Shown here one piece after another: positions 2,245 through 55,869 of a stretch of 64,000 nucleotides of DNA. A program made the translations under genes and the position numbers. Each line of letters opens with the position of its first letter. Positions within the stretch are counted from its first letter, which is position 1. Where the stretch lies: assembly GCA_964558415.1 (NCBI GenBank), contig CAZLDI010000007.1, positions 75,898-139,897 of the forward strand. Direction: 5' to 3'. This DNA is from an uncultured Dehalococcoidia bacterium. Its GTDB lineage: Bacteria > Chloroflexota > Dehalococcoidia > SM23-28-2 > RBG-16-64-32. The notes under the pieces were generated by a model that was given only the letters and a program-made list of their open reading frames with translations, was not told where the DNA came from and searched no databases.

Positions 2245-3063
2245 CTAGCGCTGGCAGCGCGGGCAGTAGTGGGTGCTGCGACCGGCGACCTTGGTGCGCC
2301 GGATCGCCGTCCCGCAGACGTAGCACGGCTCGCCGGTGCGGCGGAAGACGCGCACCTTCAGGTGATGACCACCCTCCCGACCGCTGGCGTCAAGGTAGTC
2401 GCGGAAGCTGGAGCCGCGGTCGCCCAGGGCTTCTTCGAGCGTTTGCCGGATGGCTGCGTGAAGGCGAGTGGAACCGGGGCGTGAGATCGAGTCCGCGGCG
2501 CGTGCGGGCCTGATACCGGCGAGGAAGAGGGCTTCGTCGGCGTAGATGTTGCCGATGCCCGCTATCGCCGCCTGGTCCAGCAGGACAGCTTTCACCGGAG
2601 CGGAGCGCCGCTTGAGGGTCGCGAGAAGGACGGTGGGGGTGAAAGCGTCTTCGAGCGGCTCCGGGCCGAGCGATCCGACGATGTGGGAGTCGTCGTCAAC
2701 CAGCCACATCGTGCCGAACTTGCGCAGGTCTATGAAGCAGAGCGACGCGCCGTCGTCCATCTGGAATCGCGCCCTCAAGTACGGACTTTCGTCACAACCG
2801 TGAGGGGAGTGGAGGAGGCGGCCGGTCATGCGCAGGTGGACGCCCCAGGTGAGGCCGCCCTGCAGTCGCAGAAGGAGATACTTGCCGCGGCGGTCGATGG
2901 CAGTGACGCGGTGGCCCGGGAGCAGCCGGCAGAAGTCGGCGGTTGGGAGGAGCTGGACGAGGCGCGGGGCGTTCGGTGAGACCCACGCCTGCGTGATTGT
3001 GCGGCCGGTGATGAGGGGGAGAAGGTCGCGGCGGATGGTTTCGACTTCGGGGAGCTCGGGCAT
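2245..3063 (-). CDS. mutM: formamidopyrimidine-DNA glycosylase (Fpg/MutM)
   Basis: Canonical N-terminus MPELPEVETIRR with catalytic Pro2/Glu3, an H2TH region, and a C-terminal zinc finger CYVCGTAIRRTKVAGRSTHYCPRCQ. The ORF caller's upstream extension (to 3162) runs into a tandem repeat; the true start is the ATG at 3063. Confidence 0.9.
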   Translation of the reverse strand: MPELPEVETIRRDLLPLITGRTITQAWVSPNAPRLVQLLPTADFCRLLPGHRVTAIDRRGKYLLLRLQGGLTWGVHLRMTGRLLHSPHGCDESPYLRARFQMDDGASLCFIDLRKFGTMWLVDDDSHIVGSLGPEPLEDAFTPTVLLATLKRRSAPVKAVLLDQAAIAGIGNIYADEALFLAGIRPARAADSISRPGSTRLHAAIRQTLEEALGDRGSSFRDYLDASGREGGHHLKVRVFRRTGEPCYVCGTAIRRTKVAGRSTHYCPRCQR

Positions 3064-3080
3064 GGGGACAGGATGGTGGG

Positions 3081-3206
3081 AGGGGGTCATAGGGGCAAGG
3101 GGGCATAGGGGCAAGGGGGCATGGGGGCATGGGGGCAAGGGGTCATAGGGGCAAGGGGTCATAGGGGCAAGGGGTCATAGGGGCAAGGGGGCAAGGGGTC
3201 ATAGGG
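3081..3206. repeat. G-rich 16-bp tandem repeat (minisatellite), unit AGGGGCAAGGGG(G/T)CAT, about 7.5 copies
   Basis: Read directly: the unit recurs at 3091, 3107, 3131, 3147, 3163, 3179 with G/T variants and partial units. It lies immediately upstream of the fpg start codon. Confidence 0.85.
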
Positions 3207-3227
3207 CGTTGTGCGGGATGGTGCGCT

Positions 3228-3292
3228 GTGAGATTCGTTCGCCCTCCGCACCGCCTTCCTTCCGCCCCCCTCGGCTCGGAATGACAGAGGGG
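3228..3292 (+). repeat. REP-like dispersed intergenic repeat copy (GAGATTCGTTCGCC...GCTCGGAATGACAGAGG)
   Basis: Shares its 5' (AGATTC-TTCGC) and 3' (GCTCrGAATGACA) ends with at least 8 other copies. It abuts the stop codon of the TPR lipoprotein gene. Confidence 0.7.
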
Positions 3293-3733
3293 TTAGCGGG
3301 CGCGGATTTCGTCGAGGAGCTTCTGGGCGGGGATGGACGTGTCCGGGTCTGAAGTGAGTTGCATCGCGTAGGCGAGGTCGGTGAGGGCCTTCTCGAAGTC
3401 AGCGAGCTGGTAGTAGGCGAGGCCGCGCTCGTAGTAGGTGTTGCCTCGATCGGGATCCAACTGGAGCGCCTTGTTGAAGTCGGTGATGGCGGCGCCGTAG
3501 TTGGCGGAGAGGAGGTAGGCGACGCCGCGGGAGTGGTAGATGAGCGGCTCTTCCGGGGCGAGGGCGACGGCGGCATCATACTCAGCGATCGCTTCTGCGT
3601 ACTTCGTTTCCTGGGCGAGGGCGACGCCGGTGTTGTGGCGCTGGAGGGCCTGCGTGCGCGCGCTGAGATCGTCGCTGCAGGTGGCGGCGACGAGGAGGGA
3701 GGCGAGTGGGAGGAACAGGAGTAGTCGCGTCAT
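3293..3733 (-). CDS. TPR-repeat lipoprotein
   Basis: Signal peptide with lipobox (LLVAATC), followed by 3 TPR-like repeats. Confidence 0.8.
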   Translation of the reverse strand: MTRLLLFLPLASLLVAATCSDDLSARTQALQRHNTGVALAQETKYAEAIAEYDAAVALAPEEPLIYHSRGVAYLLSANYGAAITDFNKALQLDPDRGNTYYERGLAYYQLADFEKALTDLAYAMQLTSDPDTSIPAQKLLDEIRAR

Positions 3734-3842
3734 GGTGTTCAGGGATTAAGACGGCGCTGGTGGCGCTCGCGTTGCGGCTCACGCGCGCCAACGATGCGAC
3801 CGAGTGGGTCTGCGGATCGCGCGGGGATTAGTGTCCGTCCCC

Positions 3843-4204: not shown

Positions 4205-4272
4205 GGCAAACTGTGAGATTCGTTCGCCCTCCGCCCTGCCTTCCTTCCGCCCCGCTCGGCTCAGAATGACAG
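4205..4272 (+). repeat. REP-like dispersed repeat copy
   Basis: GAGATTCGTTCGCCCTCCGCCCTGCCTTCCTTCCGCCCCGCTCGGCTCAGAATGACAGAGG, nearly identical to the copy at 3228-3292. Confidence 0.7.
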
Positions 4273-4282
4273 AGGCGGGCGT

Positions 4283-12068: not shown

Positions 12069-13316
12069 GTGAGCCAGAGACTGCCCCTGGAAGGCGTCAA
12101 GGTAGCGGACTTCTCCTGGTTCGGCGCGGGGCCGATCTGCGGGCGGCTGCTCGCTGACTACGGGGCCACGGTGGTGCGGATCGAGTCGGAGACGCACCTG
12201 GACTCGCTGCGGATCGTGGCGCCGTTCGCGAAGGGGAAGACGGGGTACAACGTCAGCGGGTACTTCAACAACTACAACGCTGGGAAGCTGGGCATCCTGC
12301 TCAACCTGAACACGGATGAGGGGATACACATCGCGCACAAGTTGATTGAATGGGCGGACGTATTCCTGACCAACATCACACCGCGCACGATTGAGCGCTG
12401 GGGGTTTACGTACGACAAGCTGATAGAGCTCAACCGAGAGATCATCGGCGTTTACGTGCCGATGCAGGGCTTCGATGGCCCACACAGGGACTTCCTGGGG
12501 TTTGGCGCGGTGCTGACGCCGATAACGGGGTATAACCATCTGTCGGGGTTCGCGAACCGTCCGCCGTTCGGACTGGGGACGAACTATCCGGACTACGTGA
12601 TCAACCCGGGGCACACGTTCGTCGCCATCATGGCCGCGCTGCGCTACAGACGGCGGACGGGGAAGGGGCAACGGATCGAGGTGGCGCAGATCGAGTCTTC
12701 GGTGGCACCCCTGGGGCCGGCGGTCTTCGACTACACGGCGAACGGGCGGGTGCAGACGCGCAGCGGGAACGGAATAGCGAACGCCGCGCCGCACAACGCG
12801 TTCAAGTGCAGGCCGCTGACGGACGGCGGCAGGCCGATGGATGAGCGCTGGATCGTCATCGCCTGCTTCAGCGACGACGAATGGAGCGCGTTCGTGCAAG
12901 CCATGGGGAGCCCGGAATGGGCGCGCGACACGAAATTCTCGACCCTTGCCGCAAGGAAGTCGAACGAGGCGGAGATGGACGCGCATATCAACGCCTGGAC
13001 GGCGGACAAGGACGCGTACAAACTGATGGCTGAGCTGCAGGGCCGTGGCGTGCCGGCCGGGGTGGTGCAGAGCGCGCGCGAGATCCTGGACGTGGATGAG
13101 CACATGAAGGCGCGGGGGTATTACGTGTACCTGAAGCATCCGGAGGCGGGCCGTCACGCGCACGACGGGCCGCCGTTTGTGCTCTCGAAGACGCCAGGGC
13201 GGCTGCGGTCGCCGGCACCGTGCCTGGGGGAGCATACGGAGTACGTGTGCAAGGAGATCCTGGGGTTGGACGACGAGGGGATCGCGGAGCTGATGGTGGC
13301 GGGGGCGCTGGCGTAG
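12069..13316 (+). CDS. family III CoA-transferase (second, tandem paralog)
   Basis: VKVADFSWFGAGPICGRLLADYGATVVRIE. GTG start 9 bp after the upstream gene. Confidence 0.85.
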   Translation: MSQRLPLEGVKVADFSWFGAGPICGRLLADYGATVVRIESETHLDSLRIVAPFAKGKTGYNVSGYFNNYNAGKLGILLNLNTDEGIHIAHKLIEWADVFLTNITPRTIERWGFTYDKLIELNREIIGVYVPMQGFDGPHRDFLGFGAVLTPITGYNHLSGFANRPPFGLGTNYPDYVINPGHTFVAIMAALRYRRRTGKGQRIEVAQIESSVAPLGPAVFDYTANGRVQTRSGNGIANAAPHNAFKCRPLTDGGRPMDERWIVIACFSDDEWSAFVQAMGSPEWARDTKFSTLAARKSNEAEMDAHINAWTADKDAYKLMAELQGRGVPAGVVQSAREILDVDEHMKARGYYVYLKHPEAGRHAHDGPPFVLSKTPGRLRSPAPCLGEHTEYVCKEILGLDDEGIAELMVAGALA

Positions 13317-13330
13317 GGGAGATTTCTGCG

Positions 13331-13422
13331 CACGGATAATGTTCACACCCCTCTCCCCCGCCGGATTCCTTCGCGAAGGGACATGAGCCCACGTTCGAGC
13401 CAGGTGGCCGCTCAGAATGACA
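13331..13422 (+). repeat. REP-like dispersed repeat copy
   Basis: GTTCACACCCCTCTCCCCCGCCGGATTCCTTCGCGAAG...GCTCAGAATGACA. Confidence 0.75.
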
Positions 13423-13430
13423 CGATCGGG

Positions 13431-13480
13431 ACGATGAGGGGATCGCGGAGCTGATGGTGGCGGGGGCGCTGGCGTAGGGG
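13431..13480 (+). repeat. direct repeat of the CoA-transferase 3' tail (copy 2 of 3)
   Basis: GACGATGAGGGGATCGCGGAGCTGATGGTGGCGGGGGCGCTGGCGTAGGGG matches 13272-13319 (the native tail, DDEGIAELMVAGALA*) with 1 mismatch. Confidence 0.85.
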
Positions 13481-13515
13481 CACGTGGATGCGGGGGATGC
13501 TGCCAGCGAACGCCG

Positions 13516-13595
13516 TTCACACCCCACACGCCGCCAGATTCCTTCGCGAAGAAGCACCGTGCCACGCCCCGAATGTGGCAGTCGCTCAGAATGAC
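13516..13595 (+). repeat. REP-like dispersed repeat copy
   Basis: TTCACACCCCACACGCCGCCAGATTCCTTCGCGAAG...GTCGCTCAGAATGAC. Confidence 0.75.
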
Positions 13596-13597
13596 TT

Positions 13598-13640
13598 GGG
13601 GATCGCGGAAGTGACGGCGGTGGCGGCGCTGGCGTAGGGA
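13598..13640 (+). repeat. diverged third copy of the CoA-transferase 3' tail
   Basis: GGGATCGCGGAAGTGACGGCGGTGGCGGCGCTGGCGTAGGGA encodes GIAEVTAVAALA*, against GIAELMVAGALA* in the native tail. Confidence 0.6.
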
Positions 13641-13735
13641 AGAGGGAGAGCGACTTGCTGCCCCCGACGGTGCGGGACTAGAATCCCTAGCGGGAACGGG
13701 CCGCGGGGTGCAGACCGGAGAGCGAGGGCAAGAAT

Positions 13736-15175
13736 ATGAGTCCGAAGCGATTGATCTTGCTGGCGGGTGCGGGCGTTTCAGCGATCCTGATGGGCGCTAT
13801 CCTGGCGATAATCCTCACCAGCGGTGGCACGAGCGAATCTGAGAAGCGCTATGAAGACGGCGTCGCCGCGCTGCAAGCCGGGCGGTACGATGACGCGATC
13901 GATTTATTCGGCGAAGCGATTGACCTCGACACAGAGTTCGCACCGGCGTATGTGGCCCGTGCTCAGGCCTACTGGGGCACGGGCAAGTTCGAAGACGGGT
14001 TGGATGACGCAAACGAGGCCATCGACCTGGACCCGGAGGACGTGAACGTTCTGGCCGACGCCTACGTGACGCGTGCTCAACTACAGTTGCCGCTTGAACG
14101 GACGGACGAGGCGATCGAGGATGCCGACGAGGCGATCGAGCTGAACCCGCCCGACTTGAACATTCTGGCACGCGCGCATGCCTGGCGCTCGTTCGGCCTG
14201 TTAGATCAGGAGGAGCTGGAGGATGCGCTGGACGCGGCGAATGAGGCGATTGATCTGGAAGCGAGCGATGCCAACGTTCAAGCTATCGCATACATAGCCC
14301 GAGCAACGGTGTACGTAGCACAGGAAGAATCCGAAAAGGCTCTCGACGATGCCGACGCAGCTATCTCGCTGGAGCCACAGGACGTAAATATACGAGCCGT
14401 CGCTCATATCGCGAAATCGTTTGCGCTAGGGGATCGACACGAGGAGGCGCTGGTGGAGGACGAGGCGGCGATTCAGCTCGACCCTCGGAACCCAAGGGTC
14501 CTTCGCAGCGCATACGGGGCGAAGGCTTTAGACCTTGAAGGTCTGGGGCGACTTGAGGAGGCGAAAGCGGCGGCTGACAAGGCCTGTGAGCTGGGTCTGG
14601 AAGAGGCGTGCGGGTTCACGACGGCTCCTACACGCGAGGAAGCGCTCGATCTGCTCCCCCTGATGGTATTGCAGCTGGAAGACCTGCCATCTGGATTCAA
14701 GGTTTACGACTCGCGGTTTGACACGCTTGAGGACGAGGCGGGTGTCTCCGATGACTCAGAGGCATTCCGGCGGCGCCTCGAGTCCTGGGGATTCATCCTC
14801 GGACACGACAGGTGGTACGCGGCCGATACGCCTTCAGAGTTTCCGGAAATATACGTGGAGATATGGCTACTGGCAGACGTCTCGGAGGCAGAAGAAGCAT
14901 TCGTCGACGGCGGTCTCTACTTAGAGGCGCCCGGCGTCACACCAGCGGAGGATTTTCCCGTCTTTGGCGACGAGTCCGAGGCGTATCGGCTCGCAGGTCC
15001 ATACCCTACCCTGAGTGGCGAGGTGATTCAAGTGGAGGGCCACATGGTAATCATTCGCAGTGGGCCGTTTCTAGCGGTGCTTCAGACGGCTTTCCCGCCG
15101 GGGCAAACTACCGACGACGCGGCGATTGACCTGGCAGCCAAACTCGAAACCCGCATGGCCGAGGGTGTGCGATGA
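13736..15175 (+). CDS. membrane-anchored TPR-repeat protein
   Basis: N-terminal TM helix, then at least 8 TPR-like repeats (AYVARAQAY-type), then a C-terminal ~180-aa non-TPR domain. Confidence 0.8.
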   Translation: MSPKRLILLAGAGVSAILMGAILAIILTSGGTSESEKRYEDGVAALQAGRYDDAIDLFGEAIDLDTEFAPAYVARAQAYWGTGKFEDGLDDANEAIDLDPEDVNVLADAYVTRAQLQLPLERTDEAIEDADEAIELNPPDLNILARAHAWRSFGLLDQEELEDALDAANEAIDLEASDANVQAIAYIARATVYVAQEESEKALDDADAAISLEPQDVNIRAVAHIAKSFALGDRHEEALVEDEAAIQLDPRNPRVLRSAYGAKALDLEGLGRLEEAKAAADKACELGLEEACGFTTAPTREEALDLLPLMVLQLEDLPSGFKVYDSRFDTLEDEAGVSDDSEAFRRRLESWGFILGHDRWYAADTPSEFPEIYVEIWLLADVSEAEEAFVDGGLYLEAPGVTPAEDFPVFGDESEAYRLAGPYPTLSGEVIQVEGHMVIIRSGPFLAVLQTAFPPGQTTDDAAIDLAAKLETRMAEGVR

Positions 15176-16694: not shown

Positions 16695-18338
16695 ATGGCG
16701 ATGATAGACGGCGGCGACCTAGTGGTGCGCGCGATCAAGCAGGAGGGCGTGGATACGATATTCACGCTGTGCGGCGGGCACGTGCAGGCGATCTACGACG
16801 CGTGCCTGGACGAGAACGTGCGGGTGATCGACACGCGGCACGAGCAGGTGGCGGGGCACGCGGCGGAGGGGTGGAGCCGGGCGACGCGGCGCTGCGGGGT
16901 GGGGGTGGTGACGGCGGGGCCGGGGGTGACGGACTGCACGACGGCGATCGCGAACGCCTGGCACAACAAGAGCCCGATGCTGATCATCGGCGGCCGCAGC
17001 CCGCTGTCTCGCTTCGAGATGGGGTCGCTGCAGGATATGGACCACACGGAGATGCTGAAGCCGATCACGAAGTGGGCGAAGTGCGTACACGAGACGAAGC
17101 GCATCCCGGAGTACATCTCGATGGGGTTCCGGGCGGCGCTGACGGGGCGGATGGGGCCGTCGTTCCTGGAGATCCCGACGGACGTGCTGTTCATGAAGGT
17201 GGAGGAGAACGAGGTGTTCTTCCCGCAGAGCTATCGTCCGGAGGGTCGCGTCTATCCTGACCCGAAGAGCGTGCGCAAGGCGGCGGAGGCGCTGCGGAGC
17301 GCCGAGCGGCCGGTGATCATGGCGGGCTCGGCGATCTACTGGAGCGAGGCGCACGAGGAGCTGCGGGAGCTGGCGGAGCTGATGCAGGCGCCGGTGTACC
17401 TGAACGCGATGGGACGGGGCTCGCTGAACCAGGAGCACGCGCTGTTCTACAGCCGCAGCCGGCGGACGGCGCTGACGAAGGCGGACTGCATCCTGGTGAT
17501 CGGGACGCCGATGGACTTCCGGCTGTCGTACGGGAAGCGATTCAACCCCGAAGCGAAGACGATCCAGGTGGACACCGATCCCGCGGAGCTGGGCCGCAAC
17601 CGCGACATCGACATCCAGCTCGAGGCCGACGCCCGGGCGAGCCTGGAGTCGCTGACGGCGGAGCTTTCCGGGTTCAAGGACGATCACAAGGCGTGGTTGG
17701 GGGAGCTGCGGGAGCAGGAGGACAAGACGCGCGCGCAGATGGAGGAGTGGATGGCGAGCGACCGCGAGCCGATCCACCCGCTGCGGTTGTGCGCGGAGAT
17801 GGCGAACTTCGTGGACGAGAACACGATCGTCGTGGGCGACGGCGGGGACATCGTCAGCCACGCCTCGAAGATACTGCCGGTGAACCAGCCCGGGCAGTGG
17901 TATGACCCGGGCCCGTTCGGGACGCTGGGCGTGGGGACGGGTTTCTGCATGGCGATCAACAGCGTGTACCCGAACAAGCGCATCCTGATGGTCAACGGCG
18001 ACGGGGCTTTCGGGCTGAACGGCTTCGACTTCGACACGTTCGTGCGCTTCAACATCCCGGTGGTGTCCGTGGTGGGGAACGACCGGCAATGGGGACAGAT
18101 CACGGTGGGACAGCGCGCGATGTACGGGAAGGACCGGGTGGTGGCGAGCATGCTGGGGGACGAGTGCCGGTACGACAAGATCGTCGAAGGGATGGGCGGC
18201 CACGGGGAGTACGTCACGAAGCCGGACGAGATCCGGCCGGCGATCGAGCGGGCGTTCGCATCCGGGAAGCCGGCGTGCGTGAACGTAATTATGGACCAGG
18301 AGCCGCCTGGGATCATGGGCGGGTACGAGTTTATGTAG
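16695..18338 (+). CDS. thiamine-pyrophosphate-dependent enzyme (acetolactate synthase / oxalyl-CoA decarboxylase family)
   Basis: 547 aa with PYR, central and PP domains. ThDP motif GDGAFGLNGFDFDTFVRFNIPVVSVVGND. RBS GGAAGGAG upstream. Confidence 0.85.
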   Translation: MAMIDGGDLVVRAIKQEGVDTIFTLCGGHVQAIYDACLDENVRVIDTRHEQVAGHAAEGWSRATRRCGVGVVTAGPGVTDCTTAIANAWHNKSPMLIIGGRSPLSRFEMGSLQDMDHTEMLKPITKWAKCVHETKRIPEYISMGFRAALTGRMGPSFLEIPTDVLFMKVEENEVFFPQSYRPEGRVYPDPKSVRKAAEALRSAERPVIMAGSAIYWSEAHEELRELAELMQAPVYLNAMGRGSLNQEHALFYSRSRRTALTKADCILVIGTPMDFRLSYGKRFNPEAKTIQVDTDPAELGRNRDIDIQLEADARASLESLTAELSGFKDDHKAWLGELREQEDKTRAQMEEWMASDREPIHPLRLCAEMANFVDENTIVVGDGGDIVSHASKILPVNQPGQWYDPGPFGTLGVGTGFCMAINSVYPNKRILMVNGDGAFGLNGFDFDTFVRFNIPVVSVVGNDRQWGQITVGQRAMYGKDRVVASMLGDECRYDKIVEGMGGHGEYVTKPDEIRPAIERAFASGKPACVNVIMDQEPPGIMGGYEFM

Positions 18339-18461
18339 GGAGCAGCGATGCGCGCTATCAGCTGATGAGCTCACACTCCGCCGCCCGGGATGATCCACGG
18401 AATTGGCACAGATGTACACGGAGAATGAGCCGCTCGGCTACCCGCAGATGAGAGTAGATGG

Positions 18462-19367
18462 ATGCCACGCATAGACTACGGCGGCGGGCTGACTATCGAC
18501 GCGCCGGAGGGGATGACCGTCCTTGAGACGTCGATCCAGCATGGGCTGGAGCACAGGGCCGCCTGCGGCGGACAGGAGCGCTGCACCACCTGTCGAATCG
18601 AAATACTTGACGGTACTGAGAACTGCCCGCCGAGCACGGCCGGCGAGCGCGAGGTCCTGGAGCTCGGAGGCTTTGGGGAAGACATCCGGCTCGGCTGCTC
18701 TCTCAGGCCATCGGGCGATATCAAGATCCGGCTTCTCGTCCGCGAGAGGATCGGTAAAGAAGACCTGCGACCGGAGGGGATGGCGCGAGAACGGGAGGTG
18801 GCCGTTTTGTTCGCGGATATCCGCAACTTCACCGCCTTCTCAGAGAATCACCTCGCTTTCGACGTCCTGCATCTTCTCAACCGCTACTTCGACCGTATGG
18901 GCACTATCATCGACTTCAATCGCGGCGAAGTGATTGCCTTCCTGGGAGACGGAATCGTCGCCTTCTTCGAGGGCGGCGACCCGACGCGAGCGGCAGTCGC
19001 CGCCACGCGGTGCGCCACCCAGATGCTCAAGGGCGCGCAGGCATTCTCGCGCTACTCAACTGAGCACTTCGGTTTCGATGTGCGGACCGGCATTGGCATC
19101 GCCTTCGGCCCGGCGGTGATCGGCGAGGTCGGGTACTACCGCAACACCCGTCCGAACTGTATCGGCGACGTGGTGAACACCGCGTCGCGCGTACAGGACG
19201 CAACGAAGGAACACGGCGCGTCTCTCCTGGTGACGGACGCCATCCGCAAGCTAGCCGAAGGCAAGTTCGAGTTCGGGCGCGAGTTTACCTGCGAGCTGCG
19301 CGGCAAGGAGGGAGAGCATCAGTTGTACGAAGTGCTGCGGGAGAAGCGAAGTCGCGCTCGTGCTTGA
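18462..19367 (+). CDS. 2Fe-2S ferredoxin domain fused to a class III adenylate/guanylate cyclase catalytic domain
   Basis: N-terminal ~95 aa carry Cys C-x5-C-x2-C...C (ACGGQERCTTC...LGCS). The C-terminal cyclase homology domain has metal-binding Asp residues (VLFADIRNFT, LGDGIVAFF) and transition-state residues (NTASRV). Confidence 0.85.
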   Translation: MPRIDYGGGLTIDAPEGMTVLETSIQHGLEHRAACGGQERCTTCRIEILDGTENCPPSTAGEREVLELGGFGEDIRLGCSLRPSGDIKIRLLVRERIGKEDLRPEGMAREREVAVLFADIRNFTAFSENHLAFDVLHLLNRYFDRMGTIIDFNRGEVIAFLGDGIVAFFEGGDPTRAAVAATRCATQMLKGAQAFSRYSTEHFGFDVRTGIGIAFGPAVIGEVGYYRNTRPNCIGDVVNTASRVQDATKEHGASLLVTDAIRKLAEGKFEFGREFTCELRGKEGEHQLYEVLREKRSRARA

Positions 19368-19490
19368 CGCTGCGTTGTGACACGGGTCACAGGCAAAAGG
19401 CGGGAGGAGGTCTATCATGCGAGCGGGCCGCGCGGTGGCAAGGAGAACTTCGCCGCTCCCGACGCAGGGAGGGAAGGGCCAGGTGACAAG

Positions 19491-21230
19491 ATGAGACTCA
19501 TGGAAGCTGAACGGAAGGCAAGCGTCGACGTCTGCCCCCTCGAAGAGCTTCAGCGCGAGCGCGTGAAGGTCGTCTCGGCGGAGGGGCGCGTAATCGCGGT
19601 GTTCTACGAGGAAGGGAAGCTCTACGCGCTGGACAACCGCTGCCCGCACATGGGCTTCCCGTTGAATCGCGGGACTGTGAAGGACGGCATCCTGACCTGC
19701 CACTGGCACCACGCGAAGTTCGATCTCGCCGGGGGCTGCACGTTCGACCCTTTCGCGGACGACGTGACGCGCTTCCATGTGGAGGAGCGCGAGCGCACGG
19801 TCTGGCTCGATCCGAGGCCGATCGAGGAGGACCGGCGCGTACACTGGCTGGGCAAACTCGACGAGGGGCTGGAACAGAACCTGCGATTAGTGCTGGCGAA
19901 GAGCGTGATCGGCCTCGAGGGGCTCGACGCGACGCGAGATATTCTGACCAAGGCGGCGCTCTTCGGGATACGCAACCGGGTGTCGGGCTGGAGCAGCGGC
20001 CTCTCGATTATGACGGGGATGGCAAACGTGCTGCCGTCGCTCGACGAAGCCGACCGGCCTCTGGCGCTGTACCAGGGACTCGTGCACGTCGCCCGGACGA
20101 CCGAGGGGCAGCCTCCGAGCTTCGATCTCGAAGCACTTAACACAGATGAGAAGCGGCCGGCGCGCTATCTCGACTGGTTCCGGCGCTTCATCGAGGTGCG
20201 GGCGGAGGACGCGGCGGAGCGGACGCTGCGCACGGCGATCCGCATCGGGCTGCCAGAGCGGGCGGTGGCAGACATGGTTTTCGCTGCCTGTACCGACCAC
20301 CTCTTCCTGAACGAGGGGCACTCACTGGACTTCGCGAACAAGGCGTTCGAGCTGCTGGACCACATCGGCTGGGAGCACGCAGAGGAGGTGCTGGTCTCGC
20401 TCATCCCCGACTTCATCCAGGCGACGCGAATGGAAGAGACGTCGCCCTGGCGGCACCCAGTCAACTTACCGGAGCTACTGGGCGAGGTCTACCAGCAGCT
20501 CGATGCGGCGATCGATGAGGGCGGCGGGAAGCTGAACGGATGGGCTGAACACCAAGCGCTGGCGGAGCAGATACTGGACGGCGAGCCGAAGGAGACGCTC
20601 GCTGCGATGCTAGACGCTGTGCGGCAGGGTGCGCCGCTGACGGAGCTTTCGGCGACAGTGGCGTACGCGGCGGTGCGGCGACCGGTGCACTTCCGCGTGA
20701 CGAACGAGTTCGCCGACTGGGACACGATCCACCACACGTTCACGTACGCCAACGGCGTCGACCAGGCGGTGCGGCGGGCGCCGTCAAAGCTGCTGGCGCG
20801 CGGCATCTTCGACGGGGCAATGTCGGTTTACCTGGAGCGATTCCTCAACGTCCCCAAGCAGCCTATACCGACGCCCTCGGGTGGCACGGCCAGTCGTGGG
20901 GAAATATTGGCCTCATTCGACGAGCAAGGGAAGGTGGATGAGGCGGCGCAGCAGGTGGCGGACGCGATCGCCGCGGGGAATCAGAGCGAAATAATTGGGA
21001 CACTGGGCCACGCGTTGCTGCGGGAGGACGCGCACTTCCACCAGTTCCAGATCTACGAAGCGGGACTCCGCCAGTACGGCAACTTCGGTAATACACCGCT
21101 GGGTGACCACGTTCTCATCGGGACGACGCGCTTTCTGGCGGCGCGCTCACCGACGGTGCGGGCGACACCGCAGACGTACGACATCGCGGCGCGGCTGCAT
21201 CGGGGAGAGTCCCTGCACGGGGAGGATTAA
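19491..21230 (+). CDS. Rieske [2Fe-2S] domain protein with a large uncharacterised C-terminal helical domain
   Basis: Rieske boxes CPHMG...CHWHH near the N-terminus. RBS AGGGAGGGAAGG upstream of the ATG at 19491. The ~440-aa C-terminal region has no recognised motifs. Confidence 0.75.
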   Translation: MRLMEAERKASVDVCPLEELQRERVKVVSAEGRVIAVFYEEGKLYALDNRCPHMGFPLNRGTVKDGILTCHWHHAKFDLAGGCTFDPFADDVTRFHVEERERTVWLDPRPIEEDRRVHWLGKLDEGLEQNLRLVLAKSVIGLEGLDATRDILTKAALFGIRNRVSGWSSGLSIMTGMANVLPSLDEADRPLALYQGLVHVARTTEGQPPSFDLEALNTDEKRPARYLDWFRRFIEVRAEDAAERTLRTAIRIGLPERAVADMVFAACTDHLFLNEGHSLDFANKAFELLDHIGWEHAEEVLVSLIPDFIQATRMEETSPWRHPVNLPELLGEVYQQLDAAIDEGGGKLNGWAEHQALAEQILDGEPKETLAAMLDAVRQGAPLTELSATVAYAAVRRPVHFRVTNEFADWDTIHHTFTYANGVDQAVRRAPSKLLARGIFDGAMSVYLERFLNVPKQPIPTPSGGTASRGEILASFDEQGKVDEAAQQVADAIAAGNQSEIIGTLGHALLREDAHFHQFQIYEAGLRQYGNFGNTPLGDHVLIGTTRFLAARSPTVRATPQTYDIAARLHRGESLHGED

Positions 21231-21277: not shown

Positions 21278-21371
21278 CGGGCGTTCGCGTCAAGGAAGCC
21301 TCCGTTCGTGAACGTGATTATGGACCAGGAGCCGCCTGGGATCATGGGCGAGTACGAGTTTATGTAGGGAG
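21278..21371 (+). repeat. diverged direct repeat of the 3' tail of the TPP-enzyme gene (copy 2), 2.95 kb downstream of the native tail
   Basis: The core GTGAACGTGATTATGGACCAGGAGCCGCCTGGGATCATGGGCGAGTACGAGTTTATGTAGGGAG (21308-21371) matches 18279-18342 with 2 mismatches, and weaker similarity extends ~30 bp further upstream. In frame it encodes ...RAFASRKPPFVNVIMDQEPPGIMGEYEFM*, against ...RAFASGKPACVNVIMDQEPPGIMGGYEFM* in the native gene. Confidence 0.85.
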
Positions 21372-31683: not shown

Positions 31684-32925
31684 TCATGCAGGCGCGAACT
31701 CCTTGAAGGCGATGACGCCGTTCTGGCCGCCGAAGCCGAAGCCGTTGGCGATGGCGACACGCACGGGCCTGCGGGCGGCGGTCAGCGGCGTGTAGTCCAG
31801 GTCGCAGTCGGTGTCGGGCGTCTCGAGGTTGATCGTGGGCGGAACGACGCCTTCGCAGATCGCCTTGATCGCGGTCAGGGCAGAGATGGCACCGGCTGCG
31901 CCGAGCTGATGGCCTACCATGGATTTGGGCCCGGTGACCGCCACGCTGTAGGCGTGATCGCCGAGAGCGCGCTTGATGGCGGTGGTCTCGGCGGCATCGT
32001 TAAGGGGGGTGCCAGTACCGTGGGCCACGACGCAGTCCACGTCCTGCGGCCGGAGGTCAGACTTCTTGAGCGCGCGCGTAATCGCCGTTGCCGCGGCGTC
32101 GCCGGTCGGGTCTGGCGCGGTGATGTGGTAGGCATCTGAAGTGATCGCGCCCCCAGCAAGCTCGGCATAGATGCGGGCGCCTCGTCGCCGCGCGTGTTCG
32201 AGCGTCTCGATGATCATTGCGGCGGAACCTTCGCCGTAGACGAAGCCGTCACGGTCGCGGTCGAACGGGCGGCAGGCGCGTTCGGGTTCGTCGTTTCGGG
32301 TCGAGAGGGCGCGCAGGTTGGCCATGGCGGCGATAGAGATCGGGATGATGTTGGCCTCCGCGCCGCCCGCGATCACGACTTCCGTCTCCTCGAGGTCCAA
32401 CAGTCGCTTGGCGTCGACAAAGGCGAAGATACCGGCTGCACAAGCCGCCACGGAGGTAATGGTTGGGCCGCGGACGCCAAGGTTGATCGCCACCTGGCAC
32501 GACGCCATGTTGGGGGCCATCGCTGGCACGGTGAGCGGCCCAACGCGGGCGGCGCCCTTTTCGAGGTACGTCTTTTCGCCGTCCGCAATGACGTCGACGC
32601 CGCCACCGCCGGTGTTCATCACGATGGCGATGTCATCTCGGTTCCGGTGGTTGATTGTGAGGCACGAGTCTTCTACGGCCTGACGGGCGGCGGCAACGGC
32701 GAACTGGGAGAAGCGCGCGGCGCGTTTTGCGGCCTTCGAGTCCATGTAGCGGGCCGGGTCCCAGTCTTTGACCTCGGCGGCGATCCGACAGTCCTGATCG
32801 CTGGCGTCGAACAGGGAGATATGCTTGACTCCGGAGACGCCGGAGGTCAGGTTGTGCCAGAACTCACTGACCGTGTGTCCGATTGGGGTTATGCAGCCAA
32901 GCCCCGTGACGACGGCGCGGACCAT
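31684..32925 (-). CDS. fabF: 3-oxoacyl-ACP synthase II
   Basis: MVRAVVTGLGCITPIG, the active-site Cys region, and the HGTGT / GH catalytic triad motifs. Confidence 0.92.
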   Translation of the reverse strand: MVRAVVTGLGCITPIGHTVSEFWHNLTSGVSGVKHISLFDASDQDCRIAAEVKDWDPARYMDSKAAKRAARFSQFAVAAARQAVEDSCLTINHRNRDDIAIVMNTGGGGVDVIADGEKTYLEKGAARVGPLTVPAMAPNMASCQVAINLGVRGPTITSVAACAAGIFAFVDAKRLLDLEETEVVIAGGAEANIIPISIAAMANLRALSTRNDEPERACRPFDRDRDGFVYGEGSAAMIIETLEHARRRGARIYAELAGGAITSDAYHITAPDPTGDAAATAITRALKKSDLRPQDVDCVVAHGTGTPLNDAAETTAIKRALGDHAYSVAVTGPKSMVGHQLGAAGAISALTAIKAICEGVVPPTINLETPDTDCDLDYTPLTAARRPVRVAIANGFGFGGQNGVIAFKEFAPA

Positions 32926-51133: not shown

Positions 51134-52066
51134 TTGCGAGCTAAAGTAACGGTAGTGGGCGCCGGGATGACCGGCGGGACGATGGCACAGAGGCTGGCGG
51201 AGACGGGGCATGTGGACGTGGTGCTGCAGGACATCATCGAGGGGTTGCCGCAGGGTAAGGCGCTTGACCTCGCCGAGGAGGCGGCGCACGCCGGGTTTAC
51301 GGCGAAGGTCACCGGCTCGAACGATTGGGCGGACACCAGAGGGTCGGACGTGGTAGTGATCACTTCGGGTGTGCCGCGCAAGCCGGGGATGACGCGGGAG
51401 GAGCTGCTGAACATCAACGCCGGGATCGTCGGCGGTGTCGCGAGGAGCGCGGCGAAGGCCTCGCCGAAGGCAGTGTTCATCATCTTCGCGAACCCTATGG
51501 ACGTGATGTGCCACGTCGCACTGGAAGCGAGCGGCTTTCCGGCAAACCGTGTGATCGGGCAGGGGGGGATGCTGGACAGCGCACGCTACCGGACGTTTAT
51601 CGCCTGGGCGGCGAAGGCGTCGGTGCAGGACGTGCACGCGCAGGTGCTGGGCGGACACACGGAAGCGACGATGGTGCCGATCGTGAGCACGGCGCACGTG
51701 GGCGGCGTGCCGCTGACGAAGCTGCTTTCGAAGAAGAAGATCGAGGGGGTGGTGCAGCGAGCGAAGAACGGCGGGGCGGAGATCGTCTCGTTGCTGAAGA
51801 CCGGGTCGGCGTTCTACGCGCCGGCGGCGGCGACGGTGGAGATGGTGGAGGCGGTGCTGCTGGACAAGAAGCGCATCCTCCCTTGCGCCACGCTGGCGGA
51901 CGGGCAGTACGGGATCCAGGGCGCGTATGTGGGGCTGCCGGTGAAGGTGGGGGCGAAGGGGATAGAAGCGGTGTACGAGCCGCCGCTGTGGGACAGCGAG
52001 ATCGCGGGGATCCGCGGGGCGGCGGAGTCGACGCGGGAGCTGGTGGGGCTGATCGAGAAGAAGTAG
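51134..52066 (+). CDS. mdh: malate dehydrogenase (LDH-like MDH)
   Basis: TTG start 6 nt after GAGGAGG. GVPRKPGMTREEL with Arg at the specificity position. Catalytic His in GGHTE. Confidence 0.9.
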   Translation: MRAKVTVVGAGMTGGTMAQRLAETGHVDVVLQDIIEGLPQGKALDLAEEAAHAGFTAKVTGSNDWADTRGSDVVVITSGVPRKPGMTREELLNINAGIVGGVARSAAKASPKAVFIIFANPMDVMCHVALEASGFPANRVIGQGGMLDSARYRTFIAWAAKASVQDVHAQVLGGHTEATMVPIVSTAHVGGVPLTKLLSKKKIEGVVQRAKNGGAEIVSLLKTGSAFYAPAAATVEMVEAVLLDKKRILPCATLADGQYGIQGAYVGLPVKVGAKGIEAVYEPPLWDSEIAGIRGAAESTRELVGLIEKK

Positions 52067-52092: not shown

Positions 52093-52875
52093 ATGCCTGA
52101 ATACGTGTTCGACAACGCCAGCGAACAGACTCCGACCCGGTTCTCCGCGCTCGAAGGGCTATTCGACGCCGGGACGTTCCGCCACATCGACTCGCTAGGG
52201 ATCGCGCCGGGATCGCGCTGCCTTGAGGTGGGAGGCGGCTCGGGGTCCGTGGCCAGGGGGCTGAGCGCGCGCGTCGGGGACCGCGGCCAGGTGGTGGTTA
52301 CCGACATCGACACCAGACACCTCACGGGAATGGATGAGCCAAACATCGAGGTCCGGCAACACGACATCGTTGCTGACGACCTGGAAGAGGACCACTATGA
52401 CGCGGCACACACGAGGCTGGTGTTGCTGCACATTCCAGAACGCGAGAGGGCCATCGAGCGGATCGTGAGGTCCCTGCGGCCGGGTGGATGGCTGCTTTTC
52501 GAAGAGTTCGACTCGCTGTCGATGCCGCCCGATCCAGAACTGAATCCCTCGGAGCACTTTCTGAAGACTCTAGGCGCTCTCTGGAAAGTGATGGCATCCG
52601 AGGGTGTGAACCTGCGCTTCGGCAGGCTCTTGCCAGGAATCCTGGAGAAGATGGGGTTGCGAGACGTCGGCGCCGAGGCGACGGCGTTCTTGTTCAAGGG
52701 AGCCTCGACCGGCGCTGCGGTGCTGCGCGCAAACTTCTTGCAGATGCGCGACAAGTTGATAGCCTCCGGATACATCACCGAAGGCGAATTCGAGGCCGAC
52801 CTTGCAAGGCTGGATGACCCCGGCGTGGAGTGGCCGTCCTGGGTGTTGTGGTCGGTCTGGGGCCGACGGTCATAG
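52093..52875 (+). CDS. class I SAM-dependent methyltransferase
   Basis: Motif I LEVGGGSG. RBS AGGAGG. Its stop codon is followed in frame by an mdh-tail copy. Confidence 0.8.
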   Translation: MPEYVFDNASEQTPTRFSALEGLFDAGTFRHIDSLGIAPGSRCLEVGGGSGSVARGLSARVGDRGQVVVTDIDTRHLTGMDEPNIEVRQHDIVADDLEEDHYDAAHTRLVLLHIPERERAIERIVRSLRPGGWLLFEEFDSLSMPPDPELNPSEHFLKTLGALWKVMASEGVNLRFGRLLPGILEKMGLRDVGAEATAFLFKGASTGAAVLRANFLQMRDKLIASGYITEGEFEADLARLDDPGVEWPSWVLWSVWGRRS

Positions 52876-52923
52876 GCGGCGGCGTCCACGCGGGAGCTGG
52901 TGGGGCTGATCGAGAAGAAGTAG
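52876..52923 (+). repeat. direct repeat of the mdh 3' tail (copy 2 of 3)
   Basis: GGCGGCGGCGTCCACGCGGGAGCTGGTGGGGCTGATCGAGAAGAAGTAG matches 52019-52066 with 2 mismatches. The last 39 nt are identical. Confidence 0.9.
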
Positions 52924-53067: not shown

Positions 53068-54393
53068 ATGGAACCTCAGGTCCGGTACGTCACAAGCTCA
53101 GACGGCACGAGGATCGCCACGTGGAGGCTCGGTAAGGGCACGCCGCTCATACTGGTACGTCCGATCTGGTCGCTCCCGACTGCGCTGCACTGGCTGAGTC
53201 CATCAGACCGAGGCCATCTGGAGCGGCTTGCGGGCAAGCGGACTGTCATCATGTACGACAACCGCGGACAGGGCCTCTCCGACCGCGAGGCGGGTGATCT
53301 CTCGCTTGAGGCGAGGACGGCCGATCTCGCTGCTGTGGTACAAAGCCTGGGAGTTCGTCCCTTCGATCTCATGGCAATGGCCAACTCAGCGCCGGTCGCG
53401 ATAGCGTACGCGGCCGACAATCCCGACAGGGTCCGCTGCCTCGTACTCAGCAGCGCCGCTGCGCGCGGCCGGGACATCAGGCTGTCACCACAGCGGCACG
53501 CTATTGCCCGGTTAGCGGAGGTTGACTGGGCGCTTTTCAACCGTGTTGGGGCGCTCATCTCATACGGCTTCACAGAGTTCGCTGAGTTGGTGGCGGAAAC
53601 GGGCGCAGCCAGCATCACGCCCGAAACATTCCTCCGGGCCACAAAAGCCGCCTGGCAGTTCGATGCAACCGGCGGTGTCTCTAAGGTGGCCTGTCCAACG
53701 CTGGTCCTCCATCAAGAGCGAGGCGAGGTCCCAATTGAAGTGTCGAGGCAGCTCGCCGCTTCGCTCCCGGACGGACGTCTGGTCGTCTATGATCAGCCAT
53801 TCTCATCCACGCTCGGGACGACTGAGACAGTCGACAACATCGAGGCGTTCCTGGACGAGGGCGACCCCGGCGCGGCGGCTCCCGCCGAAGCTCTCCCCTC
53901 GGGCACCGCCATCATCCTGTTCACGGACATCGCAGACTCCACGGCGCTAACGGAGAAGATGGGTGACGCGGCGTTCCGCGAGACGGCACACGACCTCGAC
54001 GAACGCATGCGGTCAGCCATCCGCGAGGCGGGCGGCAAGCCCGTCGAGGGCAAGGTGCTCGGCGACGGGGTCATGGCGCTGTTCACGTCGGCAGCGCAGG
54101 CGATAGAGGCGGCGGTTCGCTGCCGAGACGCTGGTAGTCACAGCGAGATGCCGATACACGTCGGGGTACACGCTGGCGATGTGATCAGGGATGGGAACAC
54201 AGTTTACGGGGGCGCCGTCAACGTGGCGTCTCGCGTGTGCGGTCTCTCAGCCACAGGCGAAGTGCTGGTCTCCGAGACTGTGCGTTCGCTGGCGCGCACC
54301 TCCGCTGGCGTGCGGTTCGAGGACCGCGGTGAGCACGAGCTGAAGGGGGTGGGGGAGGCGGTACGGGTGTGGGCGGTGGTGCAGAACCAGTGA
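53068..54393 (+). CDS. alpha/beta-hydrolase domain fused to a class III adenylate/guanylate cyclase (LipJ/Rv1900c-like)
   Basis: N-terminal alpha/beta-hydrolase fold, ~270 aa. C-terminal cyclase homology domain with metal-binding Asp residues (ILFTDIADST, LGDGVMALF) and NVASRV. Confidence 0.85.
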   Translation: MEPQVRYVTSSDGTRIATWRLGKGTPLILVRPIWSLPTALHWLSPSDRGHLERLAGKRTVIMYDNRGQGLSDREAGDLSLEARTADLAAVVQSLGVRPFDLMAMANSAPVAIAYAADNPDRVRCLVLSSAAARGRDIRLSPQRHAIARLAEVDWALFNRVGALISYGFTEFAELVAETGAASITPETFLRATKAAWQFDATGGVSKVACPTLVLHQERGEVPIEVSRQLAASLPDGRLVVYDQPFSSTLGTTETVDNIEAFLDEGDPGAAAPAEALPSGTAIILFTDIADSTALTEKMGDAAFRETAHDLDERMRSAIREAGGKPVEGKVLGDGVMALFTSAAQAIEAAVRCRDAGSHSEMPIHVGVHAGDVIRDGNTVYGGAVNVASRVCGLSATGEVLVSETVRSLARTSAGVRFEDRGEHELKGVGEAVRVWAVVQNQ

Positions 54394-54462
54394 TAGACCC
54401 ACAGATTAGGTACGATCGGAGCGCCGATGGGGATGAGGTCGCGGAAATCTTGAAGGCGAATC

Positions 54463-54499
54463 CACGCGGGAGCTGGTGGGGCTGATCGAGAAGAAGTAG
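54463..54499 (+). repeat. direct repeat of the mdh 3' tail (copy 3 of 3)
   Basis: TCCACGCGGGAGCTGGTGGGGCTGATCGAGAAGAAGTAG is identical to the last 39 nt of mdh. Confidence 0.9.
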
Positions 54500-54534: not shown

Positions 54535-55869
54535 ATGGAACCTCAGGTCCGGTACGTCACCAGTGCCGACGGGACGAAGATTGCCACGTGGCGGATCGGT
54601 AAGGGCACGCCCCTCATTCTCATCGGTTCCATTTGGGCAACGCCGGCTGAGCTTCAGTGGATGGTCGCACGGGACCGGACCCATCTTGAGCGGCTCGCGA
54701 ATAACCGCATGGTCGTCCTGTACGACCAGCGCGGACAGGGCCTATCCGACCGCGATGTGGACGACTTTTCTCTCGCCGCCAGGGTGAGCGATCTGGCGGC
54801 CGTCTTACAAAGTCTGCAGGCACCATCGGTCGATGTCGTGGCGGCGACCAATTCCGCCCCGGTAGCCATCACCTACGCCGCTGACCACCCGGAACGAGTC
54901 CGTCGACTCATCCTCACCAGCGCTGCCGCCCGCAATCGCGACATCCGACTCACACCCCAGCGTCACGCCATCGCGAGACTGGCTGAGGTCGACTGGTTGT
55001 TGTTCAACCAGGTCCACGCGTTGATTACTCACGGGTTCACAGAGTTCTCCGGACTGATCGCCGAGACTTCGGCGGCGAGCATCACCCCGGAGAAATTCGC
55101 AGCCGCGATGAGCGCTGCCTGGCAGTTCGACGCGACCGATAATCTCTCCCGGGTGACGTGTCCAACACTGGTGCTGCACCTGTGGAGTGAAGCTCCGATC
55201 GAGCTCTCGAAGCAGCTTGCAGCCACTATCCCGGACGCCCAACTGGTGGTCTTCCAGCAGCCGTACGGCACAACCCTTGGCCTACTGGAGACGATCGAAA
55301 ACATAGAGGCGTTCCTGGACGAGGATGATGTCCCGGCAACGCAGAGCGTCGAGACCACCCTCCCCTCCGGCATGACGGCGATCCTGTTCGCCGACATCGT
55401 CGACTCCACGGCGCTCACCGAACGCCTCGGTGATGCCGCCTTCCGCGAGAAGGCGCGTGAGCTCGGGGCCTCGTTGCGGGGGCTGATCCGTGAGTGCGCA
55501 GGAATACCGGTCGAGGGGCCGACGCTAGGGGACGGCGTGCTGGCGGCCTTCACGTCGGCGCGAGAGGCAATCGAGGCGGCGCAGCGCTGCGGCAAGGCGG
55601 GCGGTAACGCCGGTTTGCCCCTGCACCTCGGCATCCACGCCGGCGATGTGACGCGTGAGAAGGATCCGGACGGGCGCGACAACGTCTACGGGGGCGCCGT
55701 CAACATCGCCTCGCGGATCAGCGCGCTGTCGGCGGCGGGGGAGGTGCTGGTGTCGGATGTCGTCCGAACGTTGGCGCGCACATCGGCGGGGGTGCGGTTC
55801 GAGGACCGCGGCGAGCAGACGCTTAAGGGCGTGGGGGAGGCGGTGCGGGTGTGGGCGGTAAGTGACTGA
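54535..55869 (+). CDS. alpha/beta-hydrolase domain fused to a class III adenylate/guanylate cyclase (second LipJ-like paralog)
   Basis: By eye ~65% identical to 53068-54393. The first 8 codons and the last 13 residues are identical. Confidence 0.85.
   Translation: MEPQVRYVTSADGTKIATWRIGKGTPLILIGSIWATPAELQWMVARDRTHLERLANNRMVVLYDQRGQGLSDRDVDDFSLAARVSDLAAVLQSLQAPSVDVVAATNSAPVAITYAADHPERVRRLILTSAAARNRDIRLTPQRHAIARLAEVDWLLFNQVHALITHGFTEFSGLIAETSAASITPEKFAAAMSAAWQFDATDNLSRVTCPTLVLHLWSEAPIELSKQLAATIPDAQLVVFQQPYGTTLGLLETIENIEAFLDEDDVPATQSVETTLPSGMTAILFADIVDSTALTERLGDAAFREKARELGASLRGLIRECAGIPVEGPTLGDGVLAAFTSAREAIEAAQRCGKAGGNAGLPLHLGIHAGDVTREKDPDGRDNVYGGAVNIASRISALSAAGEVLVSDVVRTLARTSAGVRFEDRGEQTLKGVGEAVRVWAVSD

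Follow-up and report, generated by a model that had tools for sequence, protein, structure and literature searches.

This work concerns a stretch of 64,000 nucleotides (nt), hereafter the window, from an uncultured Dehalococcoidia bacterium (GenBank assembly GCA_964558415.1, contig CAZLDI010000007.1, positions 75,898 to 139,897), in which the 3' end of a gene for a family III coenzyme A (CoA)-transferase occurs three times, with one dispersed element of about 90 nt in each of the two gaps (Table 1). We refer to the functional end of the gene as tail 1, to the two further copies as the orphan tails 2 and 3, and to the sequences that follow the three stop codons as flanks A, B and C. This tail-element-tail-element-tail arrangement had been noticed in a preliminary description of the sequence and was borne out here; the translations given there were correct, and the coordinates agreed within a few bases with those set by an nhmmer profile built from 59 copies of the element. 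For comparison we used the stretches returned by a pattern scan for the element (L001-L112), eight protein-anchored loci (L113-L120) and 17 metagenome stretches with the CoA-transferase tail. The window and all the comparison loci come from metagenome assemblies.

Table 1. Features of the CoA-transferase array and of the two parallel arrays in the window (GC3, G+C content at third codon positions; TPP, thiamine pyrophosphate)
Feature	Position	Strand	Remarks
Anchor gene, family III CoA-transferase, 415 aa	12069-13316	+	Pfam CoA_transf_3, E=2e-100; GC3 0.88
Tail 1, true (functional) 3' end of the CoA-transferase gene	13268-13319	+	Last 49 nt plus 3 nt past TAG (13314-13316); reference copy for direct repeats; blastn self-scan
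Flank A, native post-stop sequence outside the repeat element	13320-13340	+	Matches to flanks of relatives
Repeat element A	13338-13426	+	nhmmer E=9e-18; motif searches
Tail 2, orphan copy	13429-13480	+	51/52 identical to tail 1; begins 7 nt past GAATGAC of element A
Flank B, post-stop sequence of tail 2	13481-13514	+	Three-unit alignment: no clear relation to flank A or C
Repeat element B	13522-13601	+	nhmmer E=2e-15
Tail 3, presumed oldest orphan	13598-13643	+	39/46 (85%) identical to 13277-13322; begins 2 nt past GAATGAC of element B
TPR-repeat gene, present occupant of the variable slot	13736-15175	+	Pfam TPR families; low GC3, 0.68
Native tail of the TPP-enzyme gene (16695-18338)	18249-18342	+	Self-comparison
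Orphan TPP-enzyme tail	21278-21371	+	91% identical; homology ends 5 nt past the stop
Native mdh tail	52018-52066	+	Parallel array
Orphan mdh tail after methyltransferase gene (52093-52875)	52875-52923	+	Stop codon of the cargo gene directly abuts the orphan
Orphan mdh tail after hydrolase-cyclase gene (53068-54393)	54451-54499	+	Self-comparison, Pfam

The array of three tails occupies 376 nt in all, with unit lengths of 161 and 160 nt. The peptide of tail 1 ends in DDEGIAELMVAGALA followed by the stop, and the sole change in tail 2, GAC to GAT, is synonymous. Tail 3 reads GIAEVTAVAALA and has one synonymous and five non-synonymous codon differences from tail 1, so that divergence is greater in the tail farther from the gene. 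A search for CoA-transferase homologues found 2057; among the 120 matches listed, the closest 18 keep the GIAELMVAGALA tail and its stop, and none of the 120 carries the tail 3 peptide EVTAVAALA. Flank A shares the 12-mer CGCACGGATAAT with two relatives (L122 and L127) and the 8-mer GATTTCTG with a third (L120), each time at the same offset from the stop codon; it is thus the native continuation of the gene. Flank B had no significant match to the post-stop flanks of relatives. In element A the conserved GATTCCTTCGCG (13364-13375) and GCTCAGAATGAC (13410-13421) enclose a variable core, and element B is 72% identical to element A, compared with 62-71% to unrelated copies in the window (pairwise). 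Nothing like a third element was found after tail 3, either by reading the sequence or with the nhmmer profile. A small open reading frame (ORF; 13488-13637) starts at an ATG in flank B, runs through element B and ends at the TAG of tail 3.

The element consists of a C-rich 5' part, CCCCRCCCCAGATTCCTTCGCG, with the conserved GATTCCTTCGCG, a variable core of about 36 nt whose length is roughly constant, and the 3' end GCTCAGAATGACA. The window holds seven copies, all intergenic and all on the + strand, and its 3' motif GCTCAGAATGAC occurs there seven times as against 0.4 expected by chance. The pattern scan, made with one genome per species, returned at least 112 stretches, mostly from metagenome-assembled genomes (MAGs) of Chloroflexota/Dehalococcoidia, and the element is common in high-GC MAGs of Chloroflexota. 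Like repetitive extragenic palindromes (REPs), to which it had been likened, the element is therefore high-copy and extragenic. Structurally the likeness did not hold. Five copies folded on their own strand, and element A on its reverse strand, gave z scores of -0.59 to +1.75 against shuffled sequences, that is, no stable hairpin, and a 41-copy alignment contained just seven invariant terminal pairs and no covariation; a hairpin or structured-RNA reading was rejected on these results. The tag of REPs, GTAG or CGTC at one end (PMC3733652), is not found at the ends of the element, which are ...CAGATTCC and GAATGACA, or GTCATTC on the other strand. As terminal inverted repeats there is a weak, imperfect pair, ATTC..GCG / CGC..GAAT. 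Rfam gave nothing at gathering thresholds across the window and, around the locus, chance-level matches at E<=10; neither Rfam nor a literature search yielded a family name, and a search with the motif returned unrelated primer matches. A link to GIY-YIG nuclease genes was also considered; their motif gave one match in 112 loci (among the matches listed), hence no local association with the element.

The orientation of the element tends to follow the composition of the DNA. The GC skew of the + strand is +0.09 to +0.19 throughout the window, which is unusually strong and uniform, and all seven copies lie on this G-rich strand, as the element does in 27 of 34 strongly skewed loci elsewhere. The three tail arrays of the window share this polarity with the seven elements. 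The bias suggests, speculatively, a replication-coupled step that involves single-stranded DNA.

Two other arrays of gene ends in the window are built in the same way. Compared with itself by blastn, the window showed no local direct repeats beyond copies of the element, a single simple repeat, the B'/B paralogues and gene 3' tails, of which there are three sets; all the short local direct repeats other than the element and simple repeats are gene 3' tails. In all three sets (CoA-transferase, TPP enzyme and mdh) homology ends 0-5 nt past the stop codon. The parallel with the mdh array drawn in the preliminary description is thus correct, and the TPP-enzyme tail adds a third array. A segment shared by the CoA-transferase and mdh tails had been pointed out as a possible coincidence, which is how it is best taken: the TPP-enzyme tails lack it. 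In the TPP array the cargo consists of a Fer2-adenylate/guanylate-cyclase gene (18462-19367) and a Rieske-domain gene (19377-21230). The mdh orphans are 100% identical over 39 nt (52885-52923 versus 54461-54499), compared with about 75-78% for the accompanying genes (53068-54393 versus 54535-55869); conservation is thus much stronger in the tails than in the cargo. A degenerate element suspected by eye in the mdh array received no support from the nhmmer profile. GC3 is 0.68-0.83 in cargo genes and 0.84-0.94 in anchor genes. The surroundings are core genome, with PolA, Fpg, enzymes of the tricarboxylic acid cycle and a carboxylase complex (carboxyltransferase and biotin-carrier subunits), and a Pfam scan of 44 ORFs of the window found no integrase, transposase, reverse transcriptase or recombinase families.

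The same gene in relatives shows how changeable the position after its stop codon is. In the eight protein-anchored loci and the 17 metagenome stretches the post-stop sequence of the CoA-transferase gene differs in nearly every case, and different genes fill the slot between it and the next conserved gene (Polyketide_cyc2, followed by the TPP enzyme); none of these loci repeats the tail-element array of the window. Copies of the tail itself also enclose ordinary genes: L128 has one of 65 nt after a gene of about 125 aa, and in three independent assemblies (L126, L135 and L136) a 27-nt orphan tail follows a 1.25-kb gene. Taken with the 52 and 46 nt in the window, the length of the duplication at this gene varies from event to event. 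In the L126 group the functional tail uses the codons GTC..GCT..GCC and the orphan GTG..GCG..GCG, as in other lineages; the codon is changed synonymously at three of nine positions, and the 27 nt contain three synonymous and one non-synonymous difference. The orphan differs by one base from the tail of the window and has the apparently ancestral small neighbour gene beside it, and the allele of the functional tail occurs natively beside the 1.25-kb cargo in L129 and L133. Two haplotypes were evidently joined here with a short overlap. A Campbell-type single crossover inside the repeat was set aside for L126, since the 27-nt copies are wholly different alleles and leave no room for a crossover. 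L002 (548-1234) offers a comparable case without the element. There, a cargo of two small ORFs is followed by a second copy of the tail of an acyl-CoA dehydrogenase-like (ACAD-like) gene; this orphan begins 4 nt past the cargo stop and encodes an identical 21-residue peptide, all 7 of 7 differences being synonymous. By eye, these two ORFs resemble a DUF4160/DUF2442 pair.

As shown by a census of other loci, duplicated gene ends recur beside the element. We compared the sequences upstream and downstream of each element copy by local alignment and used cross-locus pairs as the null. Initially, with 120 pattern matches from every GC class, the 90th percentile of the observed flank scores was 29, compared with 11 for the 95th percentile of the null. 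In a second pass, in which 82 copies in high-GC Chloroflexota loci were collected with the 3' motif alone, about 16 of the 82 were flanked by direct repeats of 23-80 nt that cover the stop or the start of a gene. Duplicated 3' tails ending at the stop codon are found in the window, L021 and L050; duplicated 5' heads, at or near the start codon, in sucD (L077), in L086, L061, L069, L025 and L082, and in clpB (L068 and L002). The joint on the 3' side of the element is precise: in 11 of the 16 cases the downstream copy begins +2 to +13 after GAATGAC, usually at +7. This recurrence disposes of the objection that the array is a unique local accident.

The copies differ from each other as alleles do. 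In one pair after another, identity is 98-100% within the coding part of the repeat, and the non-coding sequence beside it is either unrelated or alike at about 60%; each copy often has a ribosome-binding site, start codon or post-stop flank of its own (L068, L069, L061, and flanks A, B and C of the window). Codon differences between functional and orphan copies are synonymous in 24 cases and non-synonymous in 11, an excess with p=3.5e-7 against an expectation of 27% synonymous and p=6e-4 against 40%. The two indels seen within coding parts leave the reading frame intact (3 nt in L050, 12 nt in L061). Some pairs are identical (39/39 in L021, 24/24 in L086).

Several of these loci have features of their own. 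L082 (1700-2330) contains at least four near-identical 158-nt units, each a gene 5' head plus an element, broken by a run of N; this array is a recent tandem amplification beyond the assembler's resolution, and its middle units differ from the functional head by two synonymous changes and one conservative change. In L068 (2198-2509) and L115 (2248-2520) two inverted elements lie between copies of a gene head, both outward 3' ends abutting the copies; the gene in L115, whose 5' end is duplicated, is the orthologue of the window's CoA-transferase. In L077 (5338-5571) and L061 (3504-3760) the ORF opened by the orphan head crosses the element and ends at, or overlaps, the real start codon (TAA-C-ATG in L077; ATGGCCGCTGA), a layout typical of translational coupling.

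We interpret the three tails, with moderate confidence, as the stacked scars of two successive events of additive recombination at a hypervariable slot. DNA of a related lineage would enter through homology in the conserved CoA-transferase gene and would bring with it the 3' end of that gene, the donor's post-stop flank and the dispersed element. A second joint would link a point 40-50 nt inside the resident tail to the precise 3' terminus of the element, some 7 nt beyond GAATGAC. The gene end would thereby stay intact, and the resident tail would be displaced downstream as an untranslated orphan. Repeated events would stack the orphans, the older ones farther from the gene, with tail 3 the older and tail 2 the recent one; that tail 3 is the more diverged agrees with this order. 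Once formed, a tail-cargo-tail module could be moved by ordinary homologous recombination into any genome that has the gene, which would serve as the left arm, the orphan acting as a portable right arm. Spread of this kind would explain why orphans look like intact alleles and why some, as in L050, are mosaic. The pathway probably combines one homologous and one illegitimate joint, followed by spread through homologous recombination, and the 3' end of the element may act as a favoured DNA end or nick, perhaps at replication forks on the lagging-strand side. Consistent with a process like homology-facilitated illegitimate recombination (HFIR), unrelated DNA starts exactly where the conservation ends in the CoA-transferase gene, the tail being kept by the closest 18 among the 120 matches listed, and the orphan comes from a different allele in L126, in the ACAD-like tail of L002 and overall (the 24 versus 11 codon differences). 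The preliminary description had offered, as one of two possibilities, that a single tail-regenerating process moves both the repeats and gene cassettes, and this idea gained support from the CoA-transferase tails around ordinary genes in L128 and in L126/L135/L136 and from the TPP array.

A number of observations weigh against additive recombination of this kind. The relatives' loci contain no donor haplotype in which tail, flank A and element A are followed by other DNA, and neither L113-L120 nor the 17 metagenome stretches include an empty site that matches exactly and is followed by the TPR gene of the window, the neighbours being non-syntenic. Tails 1 and 2 differ at a single, synonymous base, so that the allelic origin within the window is inferred from other loci. 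HFIR as described mostly gives deletions, not short duplications, and 3-10 bp of microhomology are expected at the illegitimate joint (PMC3240628); the joints that we inspected have 0-2 nt, and no conserved target motif was seen at the boundaries of the duplications. The orphan clpB head of L002 abuts the 5' side of the element and needs an extra deletion step. The joints on the cargo side lie 0-60 nt from the cargo stop, which is tighter than random breakage predicts, and the scheme gives no reason for the use of the element's 3' end as a joint.

Could the array instead be a local tandem triplication? In this scheme, which we consider possible but rather unlikely, slippage or unequal crossing-over would have triplicated a unit of tail, flank and element of about 160 nt, the copies would have decayed, and tail 2 would recently have been converted by tail 1. 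The two units are indeed nearly equal in length (161 and 160 nt), both elements carry the GTTCACACCCC variant and, at 0.72, resemble each other marginally more than other pairs do, the three post-stop flanks are weakly similar, and L082 holds a genuine tandem array. Elements A and B are, however, about as different from each other as unrelated copies are, tail 2 is 98% identical to tail 1 next to a flank that cannot be aligned, and tail 3 is not followed by a third element-like sequence. The scheme also fails for the arrays at the TPP enzyme and mdh and in L126, L128 and L002, in which the DNA that follows the second tail bears no relation to the cargo and the copies are alleles distinct from each other.

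Equally tentative is the idea that the element is the cis-acting end of an undescribed hitch-hiking mobile unit. A site-specific nick about 6-7 nt beyond GAATGAC would set the 5' end of a single strand that contains the element and a variable length of adjoining host DNA, namely the flank and a gene end; this strand would be placed on the lagging-strand template of a replication fork by means of its one homologous arm, and its free end would be ligated after limited strand displacement, duplicating 25-80 nt of the gene end. The gene would be regenerated, and the orphan could later serve as a portable homology arm. Such a unit would account at once for three features: the precision of the 3' joint, the element's preference for the G-rich strand and the occurrence of tandem arrays of about 160 nt.

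Less probable, in our view, is a non-autonomous transposon that makes staggered cuts 25-80 nt apart, and hence very long target-site duplications, and that survives only where a gene end is regenerated. This is close to the other possibility of the preliminary description, insertion with target duplications of 40-50 bp. A precise boundary next to the downstream copy, variable repeat lengths and the identical pairs in L021 and L086 would fit a transposon, as would the inverted pairs in L068 and L115, with their composite-transposon-like outward ends, and a strand bias that suggests replication-coupled mobility. Against it, the native flank separates the upstream copy from the element, the repeats match at 98-100% in their coding parts but are unrelated, or alike at about 60%, outside them, the differences show a synonymous excess and in-frame indels, similar duplications bracket ordinary genes without any element, and there is no target consensus. 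The allele-like copies, the unrelated non-coding flanks, the native flank A and the varying lengths likewise leave the proposal of 40-50 bp target duplications unsupported. The fixed, short target-site duplication of a MITE (transposable element of the miniature inverted-repeat kind) or DDE-type insertion was not observed either, the repeats being 23-80 nt long, variable and allele-like, with native flank in between.

We regard serial integration by a site-specific integrase, in which small cis-mobilisable elements accrete at an attachment (att) site in the 3' end of the gene, as very improbable. A tail-cargo-tail-cargo-tail order in which the older copy is the more distant one fits tandem integration of this sort (bioRxiv 10.1101/2020.12.28.424599), but at one and the same gene the boundaries are inconstant (52, 46, 65 and 27 nt) and the copies lack a constant att core; duplications occur at many unrelated genes, and at their starts as well as their ends; no recombinase was found among the 44 ORFs scanned in the 64 kb; the cargo can be as short as about 110 nt; and copies can be wholly different alleles without an internal crossover. 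An integron cassette with an attC site was rejected, there being neither a stable fold nor an integrase among the 44 ORFs, and so was a diversity-generating retroelement: the differences are C/T, G/A and G/C, mostly synonymous and not adenine-specific, and no reverse transcriptase is present among the ORFs scanned. Hardly credible, finally, is an assembly artefact in which strain variants of the metagenome were chained at a shared tail; all loci are from metagenome assemblies and the arrays of L082 and L102 contain gaps of N, but an artefact is unlikely because the joints, from the end of the element to the middle of a tail, have no shared k-mer to mislead an assembler and recur in independent assemblies (the L126-type joint in three), and the entire array in the window is only 376 nt long.

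Stacked gene ends are known from other systems, and comparable tandem accretion of integrative elements at the 3' ends of tRNA and other genes is seen with cis-mobilizable elements (CIMEs) and integrative and conjugative elements (ICEs). In tycheposons (bioRxiv 10.1101/2020.12.28.424599), which accrete in tandem at tRNA or gene 3' ends, partial 3' ends likewise surround the cargo and newcomers displace older units from the intact gene; here, by contrast, there is no integrase and no constant att core, and the many target genes include gene starts. Rhs, contact-dependent inhibition (CDI) and type VI secretion system (T6SS) effector-immunity loci build arrays of orphan 3' ends and immunity genes through C-terminal displacement, for which an HFIR origin was proposed (Kirchberger et al. 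2017, PMC5361080). They have in common with our arrays a conserved upstream anchor, heterologous incoming DNA, displaced 3' pieces stacked downstream and no dedicated recombinase. Our arrays differ in having ordinary metabolic anchors (CoA-transferase, TPP enzyme, mdh, sucD, clpB), orphans of 24-95 nt, and cargo that may be the ~90-nt element, whose 3' end is a recurrent, precise joint. In E. coli conjugation, single-crossover integration of circular molecules with partial homology gives duplications of 109-950 bp from plasmids (PMC3240628); there too, part of the homologous locus is duplicated on the two sides of the insert, but the duplications described here are 24-95 nt and L126, at least, has no crossover inside the repeat. 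Short, high-copy, extragenic sequences that often abut stop codons are also typical of the REP palindromes associated with bacterial interspersed mosaic elements (BIMEs) and REP-associated tyrosine transposases (RAYTs); our element departs from these by the lack of a stable palindrome and of a GTAG/CGTC tag, and by its variable core, its strand bias with GC skew and its gene-end duplications. The combination of housekeeping anchors, very short orphans and an element joint about 7 nt past the 3' end at a dozen unrelated genes is unusual.

If additive recombination is the correct explanation, uncultivated soil Chloroflexota would gain small accessory genes and repeats beside core metabolic genes by an additive route that needs no recombinase. 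Short orphan gene ends would then be datable scars and a sequence signature of recent gene flow in MAGs, and, as portable homology arms, they may make cargo transferable whatever lies downstream. The element would represent a widespread, unstudied repeat family with a 3' end that is favoured as a DNA joint and goes with the replication strand. In annotation, orphan tails and heads give rise to spurious small ORFs, and to upstream ORFs that run through the element.

Some minor observations concern the element and the neighbourhood of the gene. The core motif GATT..TTCGC...GCTCAGAATGAC is also present in Bacteroidales, in a Clostridia MAG (many copies), in Nitrospirota, Acidobacteriota and Verrucomicrobiota, and in a Peribacteria genome of the candidate phyla radiation (CPR; e.g. 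among L020, L008, L006 and L024), and low-GC Dehalococcoidia have a nested compound form, GATTGCTTCGC...GAGATTCTTCGCTACGCTCAGAATGACA...GGGCTCGCAATGACA. In L117, L119, L122, L126 and L132 a conserved 52-aa ORF (MN[KR]DWHAKNKMPK...), absent from the window, lies downstream of the CoA-transferase gene, preceded by short GCAGATGA-like repeats; it seems to be the ancestral neighbour of that gene. Within the window, two 94%-identical copies of an element sub-family (3226-3290 and 4211-4275) surround a small TPR gene (3293-3745, - strand), whose stop codon is 8 nt from an element 3' end, and the stop codon of a ketoacyl-synthase gene at 31684 is 7 nt from another copy. G-rich units of 8 nt, about 20 of them in tandem (GGGGCAAG / GGGGCATA / GGGGTCAT; 3057-3222), directly adjoin an element copy, overlap the predicted 5' end of the Fpg gene (2245-3162, - strand) and extend upstream of it; they may form a quadruplex.

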